Positions 5,937-30,381 are shown, counted from the first letter of the stretch. The stretch is DNA of 64,000 bases from Patescibacteria group bacterium (GCA_004297735.1 SCTI01000001.1:51467-115466); one strand, 5' to 3'. Numbers and translations are program-made. The notes: generated by a model from the letters alone, not told the origin.

Positions 5937-6641
5937 ATGCTAAGAAAACAAAATGGGTTTACGGCCGTAGAAGGCGTCTTAGTAGTGTTGCTAATTGTAG
6001 CGATCGGCGCCGCCGGCTACTTTGCTTACCAAGTCAGAACTCAATCATCCGATCCAACCAGCCAGTCGCAGCCAAAAGCTAAAGCGGCACCCAAGGTCGA
6101 GCTAACGACTTATAGCTCAAAAACAATGCCTGGTGTCAGCTTTCAATATCCGCAAAACTGGAAGGTTGAGGAGAAAGTTGCCGGCGACCCAGGGAATGAG
6201 GGTGATGTTCCGTCTGCCGAAAAACTTACTCTAAGTAGTCCATCAGGAGCGGTTAAACTTACTTGGACTTCTGGGCTTGTTGGTATCGGCGGAGCTTGTA
6301 ATGATGGCTCCTATCCCGGTGATGATTTAGCTCTGTGCACCCTATATGAAGTTATTAACAGCCATAAGCTAAAAAATGCCAACCTATACTCTGTATCAGG
6401 TGTTTACACGCAGGTTGGCGATAGCCCGACGGCCTACCTGGCCATACAGGCAAGTGATGGCGTCATTAAGACGCGCCGCAGCTTTTCGGGCGAGTTAGTT
6501 AGCGGCGGCGAGGCGGGGGCTTACATGCTGGTAGTGTCACCTGTAGCAAAGTCTGCTACCAAGGCCGAGGCAGAGGCTGCACTCAAGAGTAGCGACATGG
6601 TTACCGGCCAAGCCATTATCGATTCATTTACTAAAAAGTAA
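5937..6641 (+). CDS. type IV pilin-like protein (class III signal peptide)
   Basis: N-terminus MLRKQNG|FTAVEG with a G at the prepilin cleavage site, F+1 and E+5, followed by a hydrophobic helix. Confidence 0.55.
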   Translation: MLRKQNGFTAVEGVLVVLLIVAIGAAGYFAYQVRTQSSDPTSQSQPKAKAAPKVELTTYSSKTMPGVSFQYPQNWKVEEKVAGDPGNEGDVPSAEKLTLSSPSGAVKLTWTSGLVGIGGACNDGSYPGDDLALCTLYEVINSHKLKNANLYSVSGVYTQVGDSPTAYLAIQASDGVIKTRRSFSGELVSGGEAGAYMLVVSPVAKSATKAEAEAALKSSDMVTGQAIIDSFTKK

Positions 6642-6733: not shown

Positions 6734-9076
6734 ATGCCCAAAAAATCAACAGGACTACTTAGAAGACGGCGATTTCGCAAGCGTGATCTGTTGTTCGTGG
6801 CGGCATTATTTTCGCTGGTTGGCATGCTGGCAATTATTAGCACCTTTGCAGCCACCTTTACTACGGTTGAGGCCGGCACTCTAAAGTACAACAAAGTAGC
6901 TAATATTGCTGGTCAAAACGGCGGCAGAGCGGCAGCCATGTACTGGGGCGCTACCGGCACCGGCAATGTTAGTTTGCCCACCAAAACTACCAGTGTAACG
7001 GTTTACGCTCGCGGCGATCAGTGTCAGGGCGCTCCGCAGATGACGTTAACGATTGACGGTCAACAGGTGGCTAACCAGGCGGTTACCGCCACCGGGTGGA
7101 AGGCTTACACCGTACCGGTAAATATTGAGGCCGGCAGTCATGCGCTAGCGGTTGGGTTTACCAATGATGCGGTGGTGGCAAATGGCAACAAAAACAACGT
7201 CACGACCTACTGCGATCGTAACCTGTACGTTGACCGTTTAGTATTTACCGGCCTGGACAAGCCGGCCACCTTAAGCACCAATGTAGAGGCGGAAATAATG
7301 AGCTCAAACTTGAGTCAGGTGGTAGATGGCTCGGTTAAGGACGGTAAGGCTCGAGCCTTTTACCAAAACGCGACTGCCAGTACCGGTGTGATACTGCCAA
7401 ACGCGGTCAACCAGATCAAGCTGGTAGCTAAGGGTGATCAGTGCCAGGGCGCACCAAACGTAAAGGTGACGGTTGATGGTAAGTCGGTGGTTAGTCGAGC
7501 CGTTACGGGGCGAAACTGGGGTGAGTATGTCTCGACGGTTAACATTCCAGCCGGTAGCCACAAGGTTGGCATTGAGTTTACCAATGATGTTTATATTGCC
7601 GCCACGCGCTGTGATCGCAACCTGTACGTTGACCGCTTGGTACTAACCGGACCGGCACCGGCACCAAAACCTCCAGTGGCTCAACCAGCCGCTAGTAAGC
7701 CGCCGACACCAACGGTGCCAACCACTCCAGCCGCTCAATCGGTAGCAACCTACAGCCCAACGGCACCGTATACCATCATCATGATTGGTTGGCGGCCGTA
7801 CGAAAAAGAGTATGCCCAGCTGGCGAATACCAAGACCAACTTGGTTTATCGATCGATTGAACGTACACCAAACGGCCAAGGCAAGTGGCCCAAGCTGGAT
7901 CAGTGGGAGGCAGCCAACTACCGTTACTACAACAATGTGGCTGGATCCGACTGGGCTTCGAGCGGGGCCGGTGGTGCCTGTAAGAACATCAACCTGGCCT
8001 ACATGGACCAGCGTTACAGCGACGAGTTGCTCCAGCGTAAAGGCAATATTGGCTACTATATGCACGAGATGGTGGCGCTGAATGCGGCTTGTAACGGCTG
8101 GAACTGGACGGCGGCGGCTCAATCAATCGACTGGGCCAGGATTAACAACTGGATGCTGCAAGCTAAGGCGCAAAACAAAAAGGTGATATGGTCGGAGCCG
8201 GCTCAGGGCTGGAACGCCATCCGCTCAAACCCGACCTTCCAGGCGGTAGCGCCGTACTGGAAAGAGTCAATGGTGCCAATGTTTGCCACCAACTTCCGCA
8301 CCCCATCTTTCAATCATGTGCCATACGCTCGCGATGGAGCCACGGCGGTGGCGCGACAGTTTGGCACCCCAGTAGGTGAAAGCGTGCAGTCCTGGTACTT
8401 CCGTGAAGGCTACAACGACTTAACCACCAGTGCTACGGTCGGCTTGGCCAACTACGGGCTAGAGGTTGGTTCAACCTATTACCAAATTGAAGGTACCTAT
8501 GGCGATATGGCTTGGGGCACCGACTACATGAAGGGCATTCTGGCCTTTAGCAAAACATTAGGTCCGGCCGGCAGCCCGGTGCCTGCTCCCGTGGTGGTTG
8601 TGCCTCCGGTGGCGGCGTCGCAGTCAACCGTCGCTAAAAAGCCGCTCTACCAGCTTTGGAACAACGTTACTTCGGACCACATGTACACCACTAGCGAGAC
8701 CGAAAAGAATCAACTTATTGCCACTAAAGGTTACGTCGACCAAGGTATCGCCGGGTACGTTTACGAAAAATCGGTACCAGGCAGCGTACCGCTATATCGC
8801 CTTTATTCGGCTAATTTAACCGATCACTTTTACACCAACAGCGAAACCCAGCGCAGCCAGGCTAAAGCCGGCGGCGGCCGGTATGTCGATGAGGGTATAA
8901 CCGGGTACGTTATGACCAGCCAGGTATCTGGTACCACACCACTGTACCAACTTTATAGCGGCGGGTATCCGGATCACTTTTACACCACTCAAACCTGGTC
9001 GCGTGATAGCGCCAAAGCCTCGTTCCGCAAGTATGTTGAGCAGGGCAATGCCGGCTACGTCTTTGTTAAACCCTAG
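6734..9076 (+). CDS. large secreted multidomain protein: two duplicated beta-sandwich (CBM-like) modules, a Pro-rich linker, a central domain and three C-terminal DUF5648-like repeats
   Basis: An internal module of about 130 aa containing CDRNLYVDRLV is duplicated. Linker PAPAPKPP. Three repeats of PLYxLYS...DHFYTTS...GYV. Signal anchor at the N-terminus. Confidence 0.7.
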   Translation: MPKKSTGLLRRRRFRKRDLLFVAALFSLVGMLAIISTFAATFTTVEAGTLKYNKVANIAGQNGGRAAAMYWGATGTGNVSLPTKTTSVTVYARGDQCQGAPQMTLTIDGQQVANQAVTATGWKAYTVPVNIEAGSHALAVGFTNDAVVANGNKNNVTTYCDRNLYVDRLVFTGLDKPATLSTNVEAEIMSSNLSQVVDGSVKDGKARAFYQNATASTGVILPNAVNQIKLVAKGDQCQGAPNVKVTVDGKSVVSRAVTGRNWGEYVSTVNIPAGSHKVGIEFTNDVYIAATRCDRNLYVDRLVLTGPAPAPKPPVAQPAASKPPTPTVPTTPAAQSVATYSPTAPYTIIMIGWRPYEKEYAQLANTKTNLVYRSIERTPNGQGKWPKLDQWEAANYRYYNNVAGSDWASSGAGGACKNINLAYMDQRYSDELLQRKGNIGYYMHEMVALNAACNGWNWTAAAQSIDWARINNWMLQAKAQNKKVIWSEPAQGWNAIRSNPTFQAVAPYWKESMVPMFATNFRTPSFNHVPYARDGATAVARQFGTPVGESVQSWYFREGYNDLTTSATVGLANYGLEVGSTYYQIEGTYGDMAWGTDYMKGILAFSKTLGPAGSPVPAPVVVVPPVAASQSTVAKKPLYQLWNNVTSDHMYTTSETEKNQLIATKGYVDQGIAGYVYEKSVPGSVPLYRLYSANLTDHFYTNSETQRSQAKAGGGRYVDEGITGYVMTSQVSGTTPLYQLYSGGYPDHFYTTQTWSRDSAKASFRKYVEQGNAGYVFVKP

Positions 9077-22213: not shown

Positions 22214-22239
22214 ACCGAAGTGCTCGATAATTCCTGGTG
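22214..22239. repeat. left copy of a 26-bp imperfect direct repeat (ACCGAAG-N6-ATAATTCCTGGTG) bounding the AT-rich islet
   Basis: 21 of 26 nt identical to 23993-24018. The last 13 nt are identical to the tRNA-Gly 3' trailer. Confidence 0.6.
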
Positions 22240-22371
22240 TTAGCGACTCAGTAAGCGAGGCGTCATTGCCTTTGGCTGAAGTTTATTTTGAGTAGCTGTG
22301 TTCGTGGGCCAATTGTACGCCCGTGACAATCGTGTTGTGCATGGAGGTAAAAATTAACAAAATATTTCAGC

Positions 22372-23448
22372 TTATGCTTGTGCTGGTCCTCTCCATCGAT
22401 AAGCTCGTCTAAATCCAGCATCCTCAGCCTCCTTAACCGTCTTGGCATAGAATTCACCTCGTTTTGGGGTGATTTTTGCCTTGTCATATTGTTGGTCAAA
22501 CGGCAAGTGGTATATCTTGTCTCGCTTATTAGATATATTGCACTTGATGCAGGGGTAGTTCTTGTTCATTTTAAAGTTTTCTTTTAATTCAATTTTTAGC
22601 TCTTTTGCAAATCTTTTTGCTAAATCCGATAGTGTTGTCGATGTTGCGAAAACAGCTTTAACGGACCTGCCCTTATTTGCATCTCGATACTGGAAAACTG
22701 TGCCAAAAAACTGAAATATATGCTTTTCATAAATGACTTTGAATTTTGACCAATTCTTGCATTGTACGACTACTATTTCATTTTCCTTGCTTGCAATAAT
22801 ATCCCTGCCCAAATCTTCCAGCCCCTTGAATATGCCGACATATTCAACCTCATATCCTTTAGATTCGTAAGTATAGCCTACGTATCTTTCATACATCTTC
22901 CCGATTTGCCATTTGCTTTTTGGCCTGCTCCAATATCTATCAAGAGCCAATTGATTCCTCTCCGTGGTGCTTAGTTTTCTGTACTCCTTTTTTGAAACAT
23001 AATTAGTAACCTTATCTTCCAGCTCCTCCTCGCTGTAGTCCGCAAGAATCCTCCTATCTTCTTCGGATATATTGTCAACCTCTTCCTTGAGGTCGATAAG
23101 AAAAGGGGCAACACTTTCATAGTACGCAACAAGGTACTCAAGAATCTTTTTGTCTGAGATTGCCCTTCTCCTTTCCCGCGCCATATTTGCGACTACCTCG
23201 CTTGCCCGAACTGCGGGTACGTGCTTGTATTTTAAGAAGTCAACCAAATTTTGATCTTGAAGTTGCTGGTAATACTCAAATGCACTTGCTAAAGTAGGAA
23301 AACCAATCTGCCTCTCCTTTATAATTTGCTCTAAGTCTTTCTTTTGGTCTCGGATATGCTCTAAGTATTCTTGTGCTTGTTCGCGAACTTCATGCCATTC
23401 ACTTATTGTCTGCTGCAATTCTGCCCGTACATCTTCGTAGTACCCCAT
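22372..23448 (-). CDS. coiled-coil protein with a C-terminal Mrr-like PD-(D/E)xK restriction-endonuclease domain
   Basis: The N-terminal 170 aa or so are heptad-rich. C-terminal GYEVEYVGIFKGLEDLGRDIIASKENEIVVVQCKNWSK is an Mrr_cat-type D...D-x-K/QCK core. AT-rich codon usage. Confidence 0.7.
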   Translation of the reverse strand: MGYYEDVRAELQQTISEWHEVREQAQEYLEHIRDQKKDLEQIIKERQIGFPTLASAFEYYQQLQDQNLVDFLKYKHVPAVRASEVVANMARERRRAISDKKILEYLVAYYESVAPFLIDLKEEVDNISEEDRRILADYSEEELEDKVTNYVSKKEYRKLSTTERNQLALDRYWSRPKSKWQIGKMYERYVGYTYESKGYEVEYVGIFKGLEDLGRDIIASKENEIVVVQCKNWSKFKVIYEKHIFQFFGTVFQYRDANKGRSVKAVFATSTTLSDLAKRFAKELKIELKENFKMNKNYPCIKCNISNKRDKIYHLPFDQQYDKAKITPKRGEFYAKTVKEAEDAGFRRAYRWRGPAQA

Positions 23449-23903
23449 TATTTATATGCCTTTTCGAAATCTTCAATAAATAAGTCATTATAATAGGCTT
23501 TAATGTCCTTTTTAGCAGTAACGTTTACCCATTCCTTGTCTCTGGTGCATGAGCAATTAGGGTATCTGTTGCAACCCAAGAATTCACCATACATCCCGTC
23601 CCTTTTAACCATATAGCCTGTCTTACATTCAGGACAACTCCTATTTATCCTATGTATGCTTTTAGCAATTTTGGCTTCCTCGTATTCGTACGAATTTACA
23701 TATTCGTCACGCATTGATTCAATCTCTTTTTTAAGCTCCGCTAGAGATGTTGATGAAATGAAATTAGTTTTCAATAACTCTCTAGTAAGAAGTGACTTCT
23801 TTTTTTCATGGCGCCTTTTAGCATACTCGTCGAATAAGTCTATTAGCCAGCCTATTATTGTTAGGATTAGGAAAATACCTATAAGTATGATAAAAGGCTC
23901 CAT
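23448..23903 (-). CDS. membrane-anchored protein with a C-terminal topoisomerase-type C4 zinc ribbon
   Basis: Start at MEPFIIL with GGAGG 7 nt upstream. One TM helix. CPECKTGYMVKRDGMYGEFLGCNRYPNC is a zf-C4_Topoisom pattern. The stop overlaps the start of the downstream nuclease gene (TAATG). Confidence 0.65.
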   Translation of the reverse strand: MEPFIILIGIFLILTIIGWLIDLFDEYAKRRHEKKKSLLTRELLKTNFISSTSLAELKKEIESMRDEYVNSYEYEEAKIAKSIHRINRSCPECKTGYMVKRDGMYGEFLGCNRYPNCSCTRDKEWVNVTAKKDIKAYYNDLFIEDFEKAYK

Positions 23904-23992
23904 ACCGCTTCCTCCAAGATAAATATACCACTGTATCACGCTTTAAAGTTGGTTTTTAAGCAAGATTAACCGGTGGAATACTAGATGTAATC

Positions 23993-24018
23993 ACCGAAGC
24001 GTCAAATAATTCCTGGTG
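23993..24018. repeat. right copy of the 26-bp direct repeat, overlapping the 3' end of tRNA-Gly
   Basis: See 22214-22239. Confidence 0.6.
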
Positions 24019-25258: not shown

Positions 25259-25388
25259 GTTGCCTCCTGGCGAGTTGGGAACAGTATCTGTATAATGACA
25301 TATTGACTCAAATTGCGCAAGTCGATTTGGGGTTGCTGACAACAGGTTAGAACCCATGTATAATTTGGGAGTTCCTCGAAAAGCTTAT

Positions 25389-25462
25389 GGCACCTTGGCG
25401 GAGTGGTTACGCAGAGGTCTGCAAAACCTTTTACACCGGTTCAATTCCGGTAGGTGCCTCCA
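25389..25462 (+). tRNA. tRNA-Cys(GCA)
   Basis: Acceptor GGCACCT/AGGTGCC. Anticodon loop CTGCAAA. Discriminator U73. Encoded CCA. Confidence 0.85.
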
Positions 25463-25487
25463 TTAATTATATTGTCCGGGAGAGTGG

Positions 25488-25563
25488 TGGAATGGTATAC
25501 ACGACGGACTTAAAATCCGTTGCCTTTACGGGCTTGAGGGTTCGAGTCCCTCCTCTCCCACCA
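25488..25563 (+). tRNA. tRNA-Leu(TAA)
   Basis: Acceptor GGGAGAG/CTCTCCC. Anticodon arm ACGGA-CTTAAAA-TCCGT. Long variable arm. Encoded CCA. Confidence 0.9.
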
Positions 25564-25598
25564 GGAATTATTCATTAATTGCGATTGCAGGCTGCATA

Positions 25599-25653
25599 TA
25601 TTAAGGTAGAGCTACTTCTAACATTCTAGGTGAGAGAAAGTTGGTGGAGCACA
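25599..25653 (+). repeat. copy 1 of a perfect 55-bp direct repeat (TATTAAGGTAGAGCTACTTCTAACATTCTAGGTGAGAGAAAGTTGGTGGAGCACA) ending at the start codon of ORF 25653
   Basis: Identical to 27485-27539. Contains a putative promoter and RBS (GGTGGAG). Confidence 0.9.
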
Positions 25654-26210
25654 TGAGCTACCGGCTCACGGAAGATCAGTGGCGCATTGTGCTGCTGATT
25701 TGGGATCGCAAAAAGAAGGGTCGGCATCCAGCGCAACCCTTTGACTTGGCCGCCCAGCTTGGCCTGAGCCGAATGAGCGTGTTACGCGATCTTGGATATC
25801 TGGTAAGTCTCGAAATCGTAAAACAAGATGTCGGCTATCAGTGTCACCCAGCAAAGCGTTGGCCTTCCGAAGAGATGTTGTGCCTCATGGAGGCTTGGCG
25901 AGTTGGAGTGAGCATTGACGAACAGGGCGAGGCCGACGTGGTCGCGGTGTATCTCACACAGCAAAATCAACTTCGGTTTCAAAATGGGCAAAAAATGTTT
26001 CGAGGATTTGTCGCTCAAGCTATAGGCGAAACTAAACGGGCTGAAAATCCACTCGAACATCTTGTCCAGCAGGCGGCCATTCAGCCATCATGCCCGGCTG
26101 ACATTGTTCGTCGAGCAGCTTACCAGGCGGCGATTGAGTACTGGCAGATTAGGCCGCTGCCTAATGGCACGGTTTTTGACAGCGCGGAAGGTGGAGCACA
26201 TGGCGTTTAA
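25653..26210 (+). CDS. winged-helix DNA-binding protein (hypothetical, GC-rich islet)
   Basis: FDLAAQLGLSRMSVLRDLGYLVSLEIV HTH-like segment. Start ATG immediately after the 55-bp repeat. Confidence 0.5.
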   Translation: MSYRLTEDQWRIVLLIWDRKKKGRHPAQPFDLAAQLGLSRMSVLRDLGYLVSLEIVKQDVGYQCHPAKRWPSEEMLCLMEAWRVGVSIDEQGEADVVAVYLTQQNQLRFQNGQKMFRGFVAQAIGETKRAENPLEHLVQQAAIQPSCPADIVRRAAYQAAIEYWQIRPLPNGTVFDSAEGGAHGV

Positions 26211-26793
26211 GCTGAATAAGGGTTACGAAGCAATCCTGGTAGCGATAGATCAGCAGCGCCGACCACTAAGCTTAAAAGAGCTTGAACTGCTGACAAACTT
26301 AAAGCCTCAGTCTCTCAGGGCGTACTGCAAGAAGCTGGTTAGAGAGAAGTACCTGGTGTATAACCACGCAACCCTTCGCTACTCAGAGGGTGAGCTCTTT
26401 CCACCCGTTATCAAGATGGAAAAAATAACGAAGCGGTTGGAGGCTTGGCGGGAGCAGGACCCCAGCTTCCATCCCGTAGCCTTTGAGCTGATGTTCAAGC
26501 ACGGTGGTGGATACGACTACGACTTGCGTCAGGATTTTCTGCGGCGACTGCGCGAACTGCTGCGTCCAGCGGAGGTGGCCGGATATGAGCCTGATTCGCT
26601 AGGCGAACCGCTCGTGCCGGCAGGCTGCAGTCCAGAGACCGAGCTGGTTTACCGGCGCGCTCACGAAGTGGTAAGCGATTGGCTGAGTCAGCGAATTGAC
26701 GTGGGTTCCGGGTTAGATCATGACCCCGGGCCGGAAGACGCGCCGCTGCGTGACGACGAGCCATGGTTCCCGGTTCCGCTGGAAGAAGAGTGA
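26200..26793 (+). CDS. winged-helix (MarR-like) hypothetical protein with an acidic C-terminal tail
   Basis: Start context GGTGGAGCACATG shared with the repeat genes. LSLKELELLTNLKPQSLRAYCKKLVREKYLV. Confidence 0.45.
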   Translation: MAFKLNKGYEAILVAIDQQRRPLSLKELELLTNLKPQSLRAYCKKLVREKYLVYNHATLRYSEGELFPPVIKMEKITKRLEAWREQDPSFHPVAFELMFKHGGGYDYDLRQDFLRRLRELLRPAEVAGYEPDSLGEPLVPAGCSPETELVYRRAHEVVSDWLSQRIDVGSGLDHDPGPEDAPLRDDEPWFPVPLEEE

Positions 26794-26887
26794 CGAAAGG
26801 CGGCCTCGCATAGTCTGTGAGGCCGCCAGGATTGCAATTATTTTATTTGATGGTACTTTATAAAGCATCAGTATCAACCTTCTACAG

Positions 26888-27202
26888 ATGGGTAAGAAGA
26901 TGATTCGACGACTGATTGACAACGTGTTGGTGCATGTCTTTTGCACCGCGGCGGTCGAGGTTTGCTTGGAGGCTTACGACGGGCGCGCACACCCCGACTA
27001 CTTGGGCCCGCTGCAGGCCAGGCTGCTGCGCCCGATGACCCGCTTGAATCTGCTTGTCTACGAGATGAACTGCAGCAACGAGCGCATGGAGTGGTCCCAG
27101 GCGGAGTTCCCGTACGGCAACGAGGAGCTGCGAAGGCGCCTCTTTGATTCCAGCTTCTGGGCTAAGGATCTGGCGTTTCGGGTTCGCTTGGCGTTCGCAT
27201 GA
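26888..27202 (+). CDS. hypothetical protein (104 aa)
   Basis: ORF in the GC-rich islet. Confidence 0.4.
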   Translation: MGKKMIRRLIDNVLVHVFCTAAVEVCLEAYDGRAHPDYLGPLQARLLRPMTRLNLLVYEMNCSNERMEWSQAEFPYGNEELRRRLFDSSFWAKDLAFRVRLAFA

Positions 27203-27417
27203 GTGTGCCGGAGTTGGCCGAAGGACATCAGCTCATCCTTAATGAGCTTAAAGAAGCGGGCAGCTGCGGCCGTCGGCTTACCGAGCTCGTTAAGTTGTTC
27301 GACGGTGATTTTGAGACGCTTGTTCGGTGCCGAGACCAGCTTATTGAATGGGGGCTGGTAAGGCGAGAAGGTGACTGCTCCACATCGAGCTTCGTACTGT
27401 CGGATAACGGCAAGTGA
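27199..27417 (+). CDS. small winged-helix-like protein (72 aa)
   Basis: Start overlaps the upstream stop (ATGA). LTELVKLFDGDFETLVRCRDQLIEWGLV. Confidence 0.4.
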   Translation: MSVPELAEGHQLILNELKEAGSCGRRLTELVKLFDGDFETLVRCRDQLIEWGLVRREGDCSTSSFVLSDNGK

Positions 27418-27484
27418 CCCCGGCGATTGGGCCGGGGTCGTTTTACGGAATTATATGGTTTTTGTTGTTTGCATCCAGTAGTTG

Positions 27485-27539
27485 TATTAAGGTAGAGCTA
27501 CTTCTAACATTCTAGGTGAGAGAAAGTTGGTGGAGCACA
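27485..27539 (+). repeat. copy 2 of the perfect 55-bp direct repeat, ending at the start codon of ORF 27540
   Basis: Identical to 25599-25653. Confidence 0.9.
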
Positions 27540-28370
27540 ATGCAGGAACGACTTTGGCTCAAGGTTACGCATCTGCGTCTCTTCGACTGGCTGCTGCATG
27601 ACTACGGGGGCGGGGCGACCCACATCCTGTTCACGCTCAGCCTGGGAGACTTCCAGACCAGGAAATTCCATCTGACGCCGTCCGGAGTCGGGGTGGACGC
27701 CTTTGGCACTCCGAACACCGGTGGTTCAGGCGATCACATCGGTGCTGTGCCGGCGGACTACAAGCTCGCGGGTGTGCCGGTGCCAGATCTCATTCTCGGC
27801 GACCTTCTTGTCGAGGCGATCTGGAGACACTTCAGGCAGCCCCAGAATTGGGGTCAGCTACGGGAGTACTACAACGGTGGCCAGACGCCTTACGAGGTCA
27901 TCATCGCGCCAGAGCAGTGGGGCGGCCAGGCGTTGTGGATTCCGGTCGACTTCGTCGAGATCTTCAACCTGTTGCCGGCTTCGACCGGCTTGTATGCCGA
28001 TATTCGAATGGGTCATCACCTGCTCTTCCGGGAGCAGCTGCTTGACCGCCGCTACAAGTCGACGGTGATGGAACGGCCGCATCCGGGCGACTGGCAGACG
28101 ATCGATCGGCTGGCCCGCAGCGAAGAGGAGCTTTTTGAGGAGGCTCTTTTGCGCCGAACCTTCACGAATCCTCGAGTCAATGAGCTGATCGAGGCGGCGA
28201 CACAGCACGCCTGGGACAGTGGTATGTGGCGGGAATACAACCGTCTACGGTTCGGTCACAGCAAGGGTCGTGAGCACTACCTCTACGGTGTGCCGGGTGT
28301 CGATCCTGGTTCGGTGGCCCCGGGTCTGGTCATGAACCTCAGTCCGCCCCCGTCGGTCGTGGCGGCGTAG
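27540..28370 (+). CDS. hypothetical protein (276 aa, GC-rich islet)
   Basis: ORF 27516-28370. The ATG at 27540 follows the duplicated leader. I recognise no family. Confidence 0.5.
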   Translation: MQERLWLKVTHLRLFDWLLHDYGGGATHILFTLSLGDFQTRKFHLTPSGVGVDAFGTPNTGGSGDHIGAVPADYKLAGVPVPDLILGDLLVEAIWRHFRQPQNWGQLREYYNGGQTPYEVIIAPEQWGGQALWIPVDFVEIFNLLPASTGLYADIRMGHHLLFREQLLDRRYKSTVMERPHPGDWQTIDRLARSEEELFEEALLRRTFTNPRVNELIEAATQHAWDSGMWREYNRLRFGHSKGREHYLYGVPGVDPGSVAPGLVMNLSPPPSVVAA

Positions 28371-28482
28371 TTCAATCTTTCGGGCGGCTCTGGCTTAACG
28401 GTCAGGGCCGCCGAGTTCGCAATTATCTCTCCCAAAAACCAATCAAAAATGCTACAATAGAGCCAAAATAAAGGGTAGCCGA

Positions 28483-29037
28483 ATGACACTTTGGATTATT
28501 TTAGGAATTGTGGCGGTTGTGGTGATCGCATTGATCTTGATTTATAACGGTTTGGTTACCGCCAAGCAGCGAGTTGAAGAGGCTTGGAGTGATATTAACG
28601 TGCAGCTTAAGCGCCGCTATGATTTGATCCCAAACCTGGTATCAACGGTCCAGGGCTACGCCAAGCACGAGTCAAAGGTGTTTGAGGACGTAACCAAGGC
28701 GCGCACCGCGGCTATGGGCGCACAAGACGTTCACGCCAAGGCCGAGACCGAAAACCAGTTGGCCGGTACGCTCAAAAGCTTGTTTGCGGTAGCCGAGGCC
28801 TACCCGGATTTGAAGGCCAACCAGAACTTTAAGGCGCTGCAGGATGAGCTAGTGGATACAGAAGATAAGATCCAGGCGTCACGTCGGTTCTACAATACCA
28901 ACGTGCGAGACTTTAATATCAAACTGGGAGTGTTCCCCAACAACTTAATTGCCGGCATGCTTGGGTTTAAGCCACGCGAGTTTTTTGAGGCCGATAATCA
29001 AGCCGAAATTAATGAACCGGTGGCGGTTAAGTTTTAA
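28483..29037 (+). CDS. lemA: LemA family protein
   Basis: N-terminal TM followed by the LemA pattern (NGLV...W...RRYDLIPNLV...YAKHE). Confidence 0.85.
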   Translation: MTLWIILGIVAVVVIALILIYNGLVTAKQRVEEAWSDINVQLKRRYDLIPNLVSTVQGYAKHESKVFEDVTKARTAAMGAQDVHAKAETENQLAGTLKSLFAVAEAYPDLKANQNFKALQDELVDTEDKIQASRRFYNTNVRDFNIKLGVFPNNLIAGMLGFKPREFFEADNQAEINEPVAVKF

Positions 29038-29062
29038 CTAAAAGTTAAGGAACGGTTAAGCA

Positions 29063-29494
29063 GTGCTCGAAAACGTTACTAAAACCTACGCCTGGCAAGA
29101 AGCGATGGAGCTGTCGCGCGAGCTGACACGGTTGTGCGAGGAGTTTAGCGACGGTGATCGTAATGTGCTGGTTGGCCATCTACGCCAAGCGGTGGTTGAG
29201 ATTCCGGCAACGGTAGCGGTTGATATTACGCTGGGCCGGCCGGCAACGCTGGAGCCGGCCATTCGTTTGGCAACCGAGCTGGAGCTGGTGCATCGAATTT
29301 ACCCAGCCATTGAGACCGGTACCGCGCCGCAGAAGCTAGAGGATTTATTGCGGCGGATGCGCTCAAACAATTTTACAGAGCAGGAGCCAGCCTCAGTCGA
29401 TGAGGCTGAAGAAGAGCAGCCCGCGCCCGAGCCAAACGAGGCTAGTCCAGCCGCCCCAACCTCAATTCCGGTTACCCCACAGCAAGAGGATTAA
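29063..29494 (+). CDS. four-helix-bundle protein (23S rRNA-intervening-sequence protein family-like) with an acidic tail
   Basis: YAWQEAMELSRELTRLCEEFSDGDRNVLVGHLRQAVVEIPATVAV resembles the TIGR02436-type motif. GTG start. Confidence 0.5.
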   Translation: MLENVTKTYAWQEAMELSRELTRLCEEFSDGDRNVLVGHLRQAVVEIPATVAVDITLGRPATLEPAIRLATELELVHRIYPAIETGTAPQKLEDLLRRMRSNNFTEQEPASVDEAEEEQPAPEPNEASPAAPTSIPVTPQQED

Positions 29495-29496
29495 AT

Positions 29497-30381
29497 ATGT
29501 ACACCGCCGTTAGTTCGAACAAGCGTAAAACCGTGCTATTAATGGCTCTGTTTGTGGCCTTTATCGCGACTTTGGGTTATGTGGTCGGGGTGATTAGCGA
29601 TAGTCCCGGGCTGCTTTACTTTTTTGGGATTGGGGCATTGGTGTACTCGATCGTAACCTACTTTTTGTCGGCTAAAATAGCGCTGGGAATGTCGGGCGCC
29701 CGCGAGATTAAAAAGTCGCAAGCTCCTGAGCTGTATCGGCTGGTCGAGAACTTGAGTATTACCGCCGGTTTACCAATGCCAAAGGTGTACATTATTGAAG
29801 ATAGCTCGCCCAACGCCTTTGCGACCGGGCGCGACCCCAAGCATGCCGCGGTTGCGGTGACCAGTGGGTTGCTAGAACGCCTGGAAAAGGATGAGCTGCA
29901 GGGAGTCTTGGCGCACGAGATGGCCCATGTTGGTAACTATGATATTCGGCTAATGAGCGTGGTAACCGCGCTGGTGAGTATTGTGTCGATTATTAGCGAC
30001 CTGCTGTTTCGAGTGAGTTTGTTTAACGGAGATGACGATAGCCCCAATCCATTGATGCTGGCAGTGGGGATTGTCCTAGCGATCCTAGCGCCGTTAATTG
30101 CTCTGGTGATTCAGCTGGCAATTTCGCGTCGGCGTGAGTATTTAGCAGATGCTACCGCGGTGCAGCTAACCCGTTACCCCGATGGTTTGGCCAAGGCGCT
30201 AGAAAAAATATCGCACGGCGAGCCAATGCACCGGACCTCGTCGGCCACCGCTCATTTATACATCGCTAATCCGCTAGGTGGTGGCAAGGGTATTGGCGGA
30301 GCGGTAGCAGGACTGTTTAGTACTCATCCACCAATCGAGGATCGAGTGGCACGCTTAAGACAGATGGGAGATGTGGTATGA
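29497..30381 (+). CDS. htpX: zinc metalloprotease HtpX (M48)
   Basis: HEMAHV zinc-binding motif. Four TM helices. Confidence 0.9.
   Translation: MYTAVSSNKRKTVLLMALFVAFIATLGYVVGVISDSPGLLYFFGIGALVYSIVTYFLSAKIALGMSGAREIKKSQAPELYRLVENLSITAGLPMPKVYIIEDSSPNAFATGRDPKHAAVAVTSGLLERLEKDELQGVLAHEMAHVGNYDIRLMSVVTALVSIVSIISDLLFRVSLFNGDDDSPNPLMLAVGIVLAILAPLIALVIQLAISRRREYLADATAVQLTRYPDGLAKALEKISHGEPMHRTSSATAHLYIANPLGGGKGIGGAVAGLFSTHPPIEDRVARLRQMGDVV

Follow-up and report, generated by a model that had tools for sequence, protein, structure and literature searches.

Variable islets beside tRNA genes can grow by the tandem accretion of integrase-less elements flanked by attachment (att) sites, the accretion-mobilisation known from cis-mobilisable elements (CIMEs) and integrative and conjugative elements (ICEs). 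A different principle has been described in T4-type phages, that of the promoter-early stem-loop (PeSL) cassettes (Arbiol et al. 2010, PMC2839356; Comeau et al. 2014, PMC4122927), whose units of promoter, stem-loop and Shine-Dalgarno (SD) sequence mediate insertions and deletions (indels) and form mini-circles (PMC2839356). Here we describe a locus in a stretch of 64,000 nucleotides (hereafter the window, with positions counted from its first letter) of a Patescibacteria group bacterium (GCA_004297735.1, SCTI01000001.1:51467-115466). The source is a metagenome-assembled genome (MAG) of Saccharimonadia/TM7, within the Candidate Phyla Radiation (CPR), from Oak Ridge groundwater (reads SRR8426595), placed by lemA-based retrieval. 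Between tRNA-Leu(TAA) and lemA lies an islet of five open reading frames (ORFs), and ORF1 and ORF5 are preceded by perfect copies of one 55-bp element, X (TATTAAGGTAGAGCTACTTCTAACATTCTAGGTGAGAGAAAGTTGGTGGAGCACA). A close relative has a single copy and lacks exactly the DNA between the two. We hold it to be on balance probable that X is a portable expression cassette and, at the same time, a substrate for homologous recombination.

X occurs as a direct repeat at 25599-25653 and 27485-27539, exactly twice in 64 kb, and no copies are expected by chance (100 shuffles). An earlier note on this DNA, made from the sequence alone, had reported this duplicate as perfect; the identity is indeed 100%, and the repeat is maximal at 55 bp, the neighbouring bases differing on both sides. 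That each copy ends exactly at an ATG is right as to the position at gene starts and slightly off as to the base: copy 1 includes the A of the ORF1 ATG, and copy 2 stops one base before the ATG of ORF5. The shorter version seen at the ORF2 start is also real, since the last 13 nt of X taken with the ATG (GGTGGAGCACATG) recur exactly at 26190-26202. A dispersed repeat was considered and dropped, there being no extra copy in the window at up to 3 mismatches for the 55-mer or up to 8 for its 40-nt core. The copies and their upstream spacers are as follows.

25599-25653, + strand: X, copy 1, with a -10 candidate (TAAGGT, 25602-25607), a predicted start at ~25614, the SD sequence GGTGGAG and the A of the ORF1 ATG
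27485-27539, + strand: X, copy 2, directly before the ORF5 ATG
26190-26202, + strand: third, 13-nt copy of the X 3' end (GGTGGAGCACATG), serving as SD and start of ORF2, inside the ORF1 3' end
25572-25598, + strand: spacer S1, candidate -35 region, with TTGCGA at 25579-25584
27455-27484, + strand: spacer S2, with a candidate -35 TTGTTT at the same offset as in S1; otherwise unrelated to S1

The comparison was made with one close genome, seen as a 163-kb ENA scaffold (L002) and a Logan contig (L003). In it, tRNA-Cys and tRNA-Leu(TAA) are followed, after a spacer of 46 nt, by a single leader and the ATG of the ORF5 homologue; a conserved hairpin comes next, and then lemA, htpX and ligA. ORF1-4 are absent. 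Since the relative has one leader copy and no ORF1-4, the two copies in the window bracket a 1,886-bp indel, and its edges coincide exactly with X: the relative is without precisely the 1,886-bp unit. The last 40 nt of the leader are consecutive and 100% identical between the two genomes. This run begins 7 nt after TAAGGT and matches in length the identical runs of the tRNAs and of the tRNA promoter. Identity in the surroundings is 57% over the first 14 nt of X, 81% over ORF5 DNA and 57-69% in the flanking spacers (table value 69%). X is under strong purifying selection. The perfect identity had been taken as the mark of a recent event or of gene conversion; either is possible, and neither is required with a cassette so constrained. 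The islet had further been treated as a single unit, which it is not: ORF5 and its leader are common to the relative, ORF1-4 are not. As for the proposed recombination site of a mobile element, X marks a recombination boundary, with one copy and no 1,886-bp segment in the relative, but no Rep, relaxase or integrase domains were found.

Because the expected transcription start (~25614) coincides with the onset of the perfectly conserved run, we infer that X consists of a -10 element, a 5' untranslated region (UTR) of ~40 nt and an SD/start context; both promoter activity and the start are predictions. In copy 1 the 5' UTR holds three GGTRRAG purine boxes. At the 3' end of X, SD and start codon read GGTGGAG-CAC(A)-ATG in both copies and again at ORF2. 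Two metagenomic contigs from unrelated samples, L085 and L086, each carry an ORF1 homologue, and their upstream regions share with X a series of ordered blocks: ATTGC (at -35), 17 nt, TGTATTAAGGT, CTAGGTGA and GGAGCA-ATG. The geometry TTGnnn-17-TAAGGT is common to copy 1, copy 2, L085, L086 and the relative, which has TATCTT in the place of the -10. Over the first 14 nt of X, 11-12 positions are identical to L085 and L086. We also compared the 30 nt before copy 1, made up of S1 and the final 3 bases of the trailer, anchored on TAYTAW, using 20,000 shuffles. S1 matched the spacer of the relative at 19/30 positions (1 shuffle as good), the L086 promoter at 16/30 at a fixed offset (61 shuffles as good) and the L085 promoter of the ORF1 homologue at 12/30. 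S2 matched S1, the relative, L085 and L086 at 7-10/30, which is chance level. The suggestion of a promoter-proximal cassette with a ribosome-binding site (RBS) before unrelated genes is supported.

The tRNA-Cys, tRNA-Leu(TAA) and five ORFs listed by the earlier note were all recovered at their places, and so was the terminal hairpin. The ORFs and hairpins are given below.

25653-26210, + strand: ORF1, 185 aa, putative N-terminal winged helix and helical C-domain
26200-26793, + strand: ORF2, 197 aa, putative winged helix-turn-helix (wHTH) protein
26799-26827, + strand: terminator-like hairpin 1, ends the unit ORF1-2 (-25.7 kcal/mol, z -4.7)
26888-27202, + strand: ORF3, 104 aa, ORFan
27199-27417, + strand: ORF4, 72 aa, small wHTH-like protein
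27416-27439, + strand: terminator-like hairpin 2, ends the unit ORF3-4 (-22.1 kcal/mol, z -4.2); 45 nt upstream of copy 2
27540-28370, + strand: ORF5, 276 aa, NCBI protein EPO04_00535
28383-28412, + strand: terminator-like hairpin 3, ends the unit ORF5 (-26.7 kcal/mol, z -4.6); conserved in the relative

ORF1 and ORF2 overlap by 11 nt and ORF3 and ORF4 by 4 nt. The islet is made up of three predicted transcription units, ORF1-2, ORF3-4 and ORF5, delimited by the hairpins, and X heads two of them (ORF1-2 and ORF5). A stem-loop stands next to the cassette in one case, with the hairpin at 27416-27439 before copy 2; before copy 1 the place is taken by tRNA-Leu. The GC content of 25564-28420 had been put at 60-65% by eye; it measures 56.1%, which still places it at the 99.5th percentile among windows of that size (mean 51.8%, sd 2.4%). 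The compositional outliers are only ORF5 (61.4% GC; GC at third codon positions, GC3, 0.75) and ORF3 (GC3 0.80), with ordinary GC3 in ORF1, ORF2 and ORF4. For ORF3 no homologue was found in Pfam, PHROGs, NCBIfam, PADLOC, PDB or the fetched loci, two large protein collections not having been queried with it. Among 5.8 billion clustered proteins ORF5 has a single homologue, in the relative (80% amino acid identity), and it has no family, PDB, phage or plasmid match; its AlphaFold2 model is unusable (predicted local distance difference test, pLDDT, 33). ORF5 is a real gene under purifying selection, with a proportion of synonymous differences (pS) of 0.45, a synonymous divergence (dS) of 0.68 and a nonsynonymous to synonymous ratio (dN/dS) of 0.17 between window and relative. 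Its dS of 0.68 (window 27540-28370) compares with ~2 for the adjoining lemA and htpX (28483-30381). This suggests a more recent exchange of the ORF5 cassette between lineages, or a strong codon/GC3 bias.

The genes of the 1,886-bp unit recur elsewhere. An exhaustive HMMER scan of 1.84 billion representatives returned two ORF1 relatives, at 33-38% identity, and the N-terminus of the family is near-invariant (MSYQLTADQWRIVLL, MSY[QR]LT[AE]DQWRIVLL). The ORF1-like gene is followed by an ORF2-like gene in L086 (48% identity) and by an ORF4-like gene in L085 (54% identity). By these alignments ORF1, ORF2 and ORF4 form a recurring module of winged-helix-like proteins behind a homologous, diverged promoter/leader. 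ORF2 had no relative in a word-indexed search, and the ORF1 family has no member in JGI metagenomes or IMG/VR. ORF1 and ORF2 themselves were considered as recent tandem paralogues and the idea was dropped, BLASTP giving nothing (E 0.86); they are at most ancient paralogues, because they share a common architecture at only 18% identity (MAFFT). In both L085 and L086 the module lies downstream of a gene for a right-handed beta-helix protein (Pfam Beta_helix; PHROG tail spike, E 5e-17), the C-terminus of which recurs in seven IMG/VR contigs, all seven without the module. This tail-spike-like neighbour is a weak hint that the module may have come from a phage. A BFVD fold search with the module proteins gave generic wHTH matches only, none significant. 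In INPHARED, ORF1, ORF2 and ORF5 had no match and the tail-spike-like gene had one weak match, and tblastn found nothing in 72,556 plasmids (PLSDB) or 50,697 phages (INPHARED). Prophages are poorly represented in these genomes according to the source study (PMC7137472).

The islet occupies a place that varies throughout the class. Its borders on the chromosome are as follows.

25336-25364, + strand: sigma-70-like promoter of the tRNA-Cys/tRNA-Leu unit (CTGACA-17-TATAAT, 11/12 match), with a 40-nt run identical to the relative
25389-25462, + strand: tRNA-Cys(GCA) (ARAGORN, Rfam)
25478-25563, + strand: tRNA-Leu(TAA) (ARAGORN, Rfam)
28450-28458, + strand: lemA promoter, TGCTACAAT, which precedes lemA
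28483-29037, + strand: lemA

We compared 80 GTDB Saccharimonadia lemA loci other than the window. The tRNA-Cys/tRNA-Leu(TAA) pair is the conserved left anchor; in 58 of the 80 loci the first tRNA upstream of lemA is tRNA-Leu(TAA), and in one other it is the second. The gap from tRNA-Leu to lemA measures 62-170 bp in 28 genomes, 263-304 bp in 3 and 603-4,798 bp in 28. The short gaps (62-170 bp) typically contain the tRNA terminator hairpin and a TGCTAnAAT promoter. The ORFs in the filled gaps are unrelated, 44 of 59 being singletons (the five window ORFs counted in), and relatives of ORF1-5 adjoin lemA in none of the 80 loci, so that the segment 25564-28420 is not conserved, a comparison that the earlier note had proposed. 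The tRNA-Leu(TAA)-to-lemA gap is a hypervariable hotspot, in the empty state in many genera and occupied by unrelated ORFans in others, and its context, with tRNAs, lemA, htpX, ligA and gatCAB, is chromosomal. The spacer within the tRNA pair also varies: it has 15 nt in the window (25463-25477), 33 nt in the relative (L002 9797-9829) and up to ~1.1 kb in other Saccharimonadia, which suggests a second insertion point between both tRNAs. Further along, an insertion of 4.5 kb that is not in the window separates ligA from gatC in the relative (L002 15565-20052). It carries genes for an ABC transporter pair and for a protein of 563 aa, whose N-terminus is similar (49% over 79 aa) to the tail-fibre-like one of the L085 beta-helix protein.

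In the reading that we favour, X, as -10 element, 5' UTR and SD, would head the units of a small accessory-gene array in the tRNA-Leu(TAA)-lemA hotspot. X is kept (nearly) invariant by selection, and its copies therefore offer 55 bp of perfect homology. Recombination between them would add or remove the intervening DNA, here the 1,886-bp unit with ORF1-ORF2 and ORF3-ORF4 (three winged-helix-like proteins and one ORFan), and the relative would represent the single-copy state with X directly before ORF5. As a consequence ORF1-2 and ORF5 would stand under the same promoter-proximal and translation-initiation signals, possibly controlled by the module's own wHTH proteins. Recombination as the mechanism, like the direction of the event, is what we infer from this arrangement. 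Two histories can be drawn. By insertion, a chromosome with tRNA-S1-X-ORF5 would have recombined at X with a circle of X-ORF1...ORF4-hairpin-GGAATTAT-S2. By deletion, a cassette of S1, X and ORF1-4 would have arrived beside the tRNA, before S2-X-ORF5, and the relative would later have lost ORF1-4, S2 and X by X-by-X recombination, fusing S1 and X to ORF5. The insertion history needs fewer events than the deletion history. Our slight preference is nevertheless for deletion in the relative, which accounts for the likeness of S1 to the promoters of ORF1 homologues and for S2 having no counterpart. Under either direction the breakpoints of the ORF1-4 polymorphism lie in X.

Several observations weigh against this reading. 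A consensus promoter scan calls no promoter in X, TTGCGA-17-TAAGGT being a weak match, and copy 1 could be transcribed simply by read-through from the tRNA promoter, since no hairpin follows tRNA-Leu. No significant RNA fold of the leader (-7.4 kcal/mol, z -0.4) accounts for its extreme conservation, and the leader has neither an Rfam match nor a conserved small ORF. It is for these reasons, the uncalled promoter, the possible read-through and the unfolded, unannotated UTR, that we state the functional reading of X as a prediction. No third full X was found in the window, the 86 fetched loci, GTDB representative genomes, JGI metagenome contigs or IMG/VR. Within these sequences, which took in the 64 kb of the window from the MAG itself, the 55-mer is not the common genome-wide repeat that the earlier note had named as a refutation. 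A 22-27-nt pattern of the X core had no match in GTDB representative genomes or IMG/VR, and neither did a gapped three-block pattern, which would catch leaders of the L085/L086 type too, in JGI metagenome contigs or IMG/VR. The case for a portable cassette comes from two genes here and from the diverged leaders of L085 and L086. In addition, if a foreign circle had simply entered by Campbell insertion, the two copies would not be identical over the first 14 nt, where X differs from the relative. This identity needs selection, gene conversion or a donor of the same lineage, and selection is plausible because of the match of these bases to L085 and L086. Finally, a motif of the form GSAATTAT stands at every unit boundary, which suggests that a second, site-specific process may actually move the units.

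25564-25571, + strand: tRNA 3' trailer motif GGAATTAT, the left islet edge, directly after tRNA-Leu
26834-26841, + strand: motif GCAATTAT, after hairpin 1
27447-27454, + strand: second GGAATTAT, after hairpin 2 and 38 nt upstream of copy 2
28419-28426, + strand: motif GCAATTAT, after hairpin 3, the right islet edge

This last point leads to the strongest of the competing explanations, which we consider unlikely. Here a recombinase whose gene lies elsewhere would integrate the units site-specifically into the tRNA 3' end/trailer, with (CACCA)GGAATTAT as the att-like core. The islet would then be a tandem accretion of integrase-less cassettes, with X a mere common leader and X-by-X exchange confined to a secondary deletion in the relative. 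The placing of the motifs agrees with this. GGAATTAT follows tRNA-Leu (25564) and recurs at 27447, at near-equal offsets to X (35 nt upstream of copy 1 and 38 nt upstream of copy 2), and each hairpin has GSAATTAT 6-9 nt beyond it, in the form GCAATTAT after the other two. In the window GSAATTAT is enriched, with 12 observed against 4.7 expected and 0/100 shuffles reaching 12. The likeness of S1 to the promoters of ORF1 homologues, which S2 lacks, would also fit a cassette that arrived with S1 and X. On the other hand, the repeats at tRNA-Leu are just 8 nt long (GGAATTAT at 27447, GCAATTAT at 26834 and 28419), two of them in the GC variant and none with CACCA, and there is no tRNA-end repeat of at least 9 nt. 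GGAATTAT(T) directly follows the CCA of 4 of the 8 tRNAs in the window (13907, 24006, 25564, 63906), and GnAATTAT is the native trailer of tRNA-Leu(TAA) in several other Saccharimonadia genera (L006, L010, L028, L058, L067). The motif lies ~45-50 nt upstream of the predicted starts, and an AT-rich promoter region for ORF3 comes after the one at 26834-26841. Judged by these positions, it may have a conserved role in the tRNA 3' trailer, in processing or upstream of promoters instead of being an att scar. ORF2 and ORF5 terminator regions (26799-26841, 28383-28426) and L002 10836-10880 share GGCGGC...GCCGCC stems followed by (A/G)(G/A)G(A/T)T(T/C)GCAATTAT, a pattern that can be likened to a degenerate CCAGGAATTAT tRNA-end/trailer with a 4-5-nt insertion.

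The islets at tRNA-Gly(GCC) offer this explanation clearer support than the one at tRNA-Leu. On the minus strand of the window (22227-24018), an islet of 1.78 kb and low GC (39%) lies directly 3' of tRNA-Gly(GCC), with genes for a Zn_ribbon_Top1 protein and an Mrr-like restriction endonuclease. The islet is bordered by a 13-nt direct repeat, CACCAGGAATTAT (tRNA 3' end plus trailer; 13-14 nt), an att-type duplication; the native terminator, GAGCACTTCGGTACTC-TTTTT, has been displaced to its far side, and it contains no integrase. In the relative, four copies of CACCAGGAATTATT(T) lie downstream of the same tRNA (L002 3304-7727) along with a 32-nt duplicated terminator (6280-6311 and 7680-7711, 91% identical). 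Repeats and terminators together delimit tandem small integrase-less islets of 0.7, 0.7 and 3.0 kb. At filled tRNA-Leu hotspots elsewhere, however, a general duplication of the tRNA end was looked for and not seen, barring one 13-nt case (L073). No integrase domain was found in ORF1-5 (Pfam, PHROGs, NCBIfam, PADLOC), and a crude scan for tyrosine-recombinase motifs across the window was negative. Site-specific placement also leaves the identity of the two leaders without explanation.

The tRNA-Leu and tRNA-Gly arrays might also be two faces of one mechanism, an undescribed integron-like cassette system of Saccharibacteria that is integrase-less or served in trans; we rate this as rather improbable. 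Units of promoter, leader, one or two ORFs and hairpin would accumulate in tandem 3' of tRNA genes, delimited by (CACCA)GGAATTAT, and would be moved among loci, strains and phages by recombination at the leader.

It is quite improbable that X is mainly a cis-regulatory RNA (an attenuator, a tandem-Trp leader peptide or a 5' UTR that binds a protein or ligand), duplicated for co-regulation, with the indel incidental. Compared with the sequence on either side, the 5' UTR is extremely conserved, it has the three GGTRRAG boxes, and in copy 1 a short frame (GTG-AGA-GAA-AGT-TGG-TGG-AGC-ACA-TGA) overlaps the ORF1 ATG. The identity of X as a structured RNA or riboswitch was nonetheless dropped for want of an Rfam match and a significant fold. 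The corresponding leader peptide (MRESWWST) was also dropped, its frame differing between the copies and the relative: in copy 2 it is fused in frame to ORF5, in the relative it is out of frame, and it has no SD of its own. An incidental indel would also not be expected to have its boundaries exactly at the repeat.

An artefact of assembly or of a mixed population, in which the true chromosome would run tRNA-Leu/X/ORF5 and ORF1-4 with X would belong to a 1,886-bp circle, another strain or a phage, is very unlikely. The Logan k=31 assembly of the same run matches every base but breaks inside X. Its graph shows X as a node with two entries and two exits, and the ORF1-4 piece is a separate contig of 1,891 bp (25624-27514) with 30 nt of X at each end, the ORF5 contig starting 30 nt inside X (from 27510). 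By itself this graph fits an integrated unit as well as a circle plus an empty site; the IDBA contig separates them. The source study assembled each sample with IDBA-UD from 2x151-nt reads, at k = 31 to 121 in steps of 10 (PMC7137472), and the order at the junctions is read-supported because k-mers of 61-121 nt span X with both flanks. The coincidence of 55 with the largest k that metaSPAdes uses by default was likewise set aside, the assembler being IDBA-UD with a k series that lacks 55. Were two replicons involved, their perfect 55-bp identity would still be real, and the biological explanation it calls for would be the same.

The earlier note's own proposal, that the whole of 25564-28420 is a regulatory or replication remnant of a plasmid or ICE at a tRNA, with the repeat as duplicated promoter or att site, has in its favour the tRNA-adjacent position and the variation of the segment among genomes, and can hardly be maintained when the islet proteins contain no Rep, relaxase, type IV secretion system (T4SS), partition or integrase domain, when tblastn gives no match in PLSDB or INPHARED, when the relative has ORF5 but not ORF1-4, and when the module homologues adjoin a tail-spike-like gene and not plasmid genes.

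Among known systems, the locus is not recognisable as an integron, an integrative element, a plasmid remnant or an ICE remnant. It resembles an integron array in its serial small, mostly ORFan units at a fixed chromosomal site, in their hairpin-forming ends and in a content that differs between relatives. It differs in having no IntI or attI, with no integrase between 17 kb and 30 kb of the window, and in adjoining tRNA genes. The units here have their own predicted promoters/leaders, whereas integron cassettes are usually promoterless, and it is the 5' end of the unit, not the 3' end, that carries the repeated element. With CIME/ICE accretion it shares variable DNA directly 3' of tRNA genes in islets without an integrase and, at tRNA-Gly, serial small islets flanked by a repeated tRNA 3' end/trailer. 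In contrast, the only long repeat of the tRNA-Leu islet is the leader and not a tRNA end, and the att-like motif there has 8 nt, is partly degenerate and is perhaps a native functional motif. No recombinase domain that would mark a tRNA-targeting integrative element is encoded by ORF1-5 in Pfam, PHROGs, NCBIfam or PADLOC. A further parallel is Campbell-type integration and excision through short homologous repeats, in that direct repeats flank a segment in one genome that is exactly absent from the other, which has a single repeat. The repeat, however, is a predicted expression signal and not an insertion sequence or an rRNA/tRNA gene, and with 55 bp it comes close to the shortest length at which RecA-dependent exchange is efficient.

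In the tiny genomes of Saccharibacteria and other CPR bacteria few mobile elements are recognised, and the gain and loss of accessory genes is poorly documented. The locus provides a case resolved to the base pair, the presence or absence of a 1.9-kb module bounded exactly by a conserved cassette, in a hotspot. We regard it as a non-artefactual micro-event of genome plasticity in a CPR bacterium, mechanistically suggestive and not unprecedented. The ORF1-like (with the MSYQLTADQWRIVLL N-terminus), ORF2-like and ORF4-like families are unannotated candidate regulators of these cassettes. Emerging Saccharibacteria genetics relies on natural transformation and homologous recombination, and if the cassette works as proposed, a by-product would be a compact native promoter/5'-UTR/RBS element of ~55-90 bp, potentially useful there.

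The nearest counterpart is the PeSL cassette, to which X appears analogous in the way it would work. Both are short repeated intergenic cassettes with promoter elements (predicted here), an SD and the start codon of the gene that follows, in most cases an ORFan, and a stem-loop of terminator type closely precedes them. The regions that hold them are hyperplastic, and indels there between close relatives are bounded by the cassettes, and in both, recombination between neighbouring copies predicts mini-circles of gene plus cassette. The differences are clear as well. PeSLs reside in a phage genome and X on a CPR chromosome beside tRNA genes; there are two full copies and one 13-nt copy in 64 kb as against ~50 per phage. 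The part conserved here is the -10 region, the 5' UTR and the SD, as against a consensus sigma-70 promoter and stem-loop in PeSL. The -35 regions of the two X copies are unrelated. Because genome type, copy number and conserved part differ, we do not call X a member of the PeSL family. If the cassette works as proposed, the PeSL principle, in which a regulatory cassette doubles as a recombination handle, would extend to the chromosome of a CPR bacterium.

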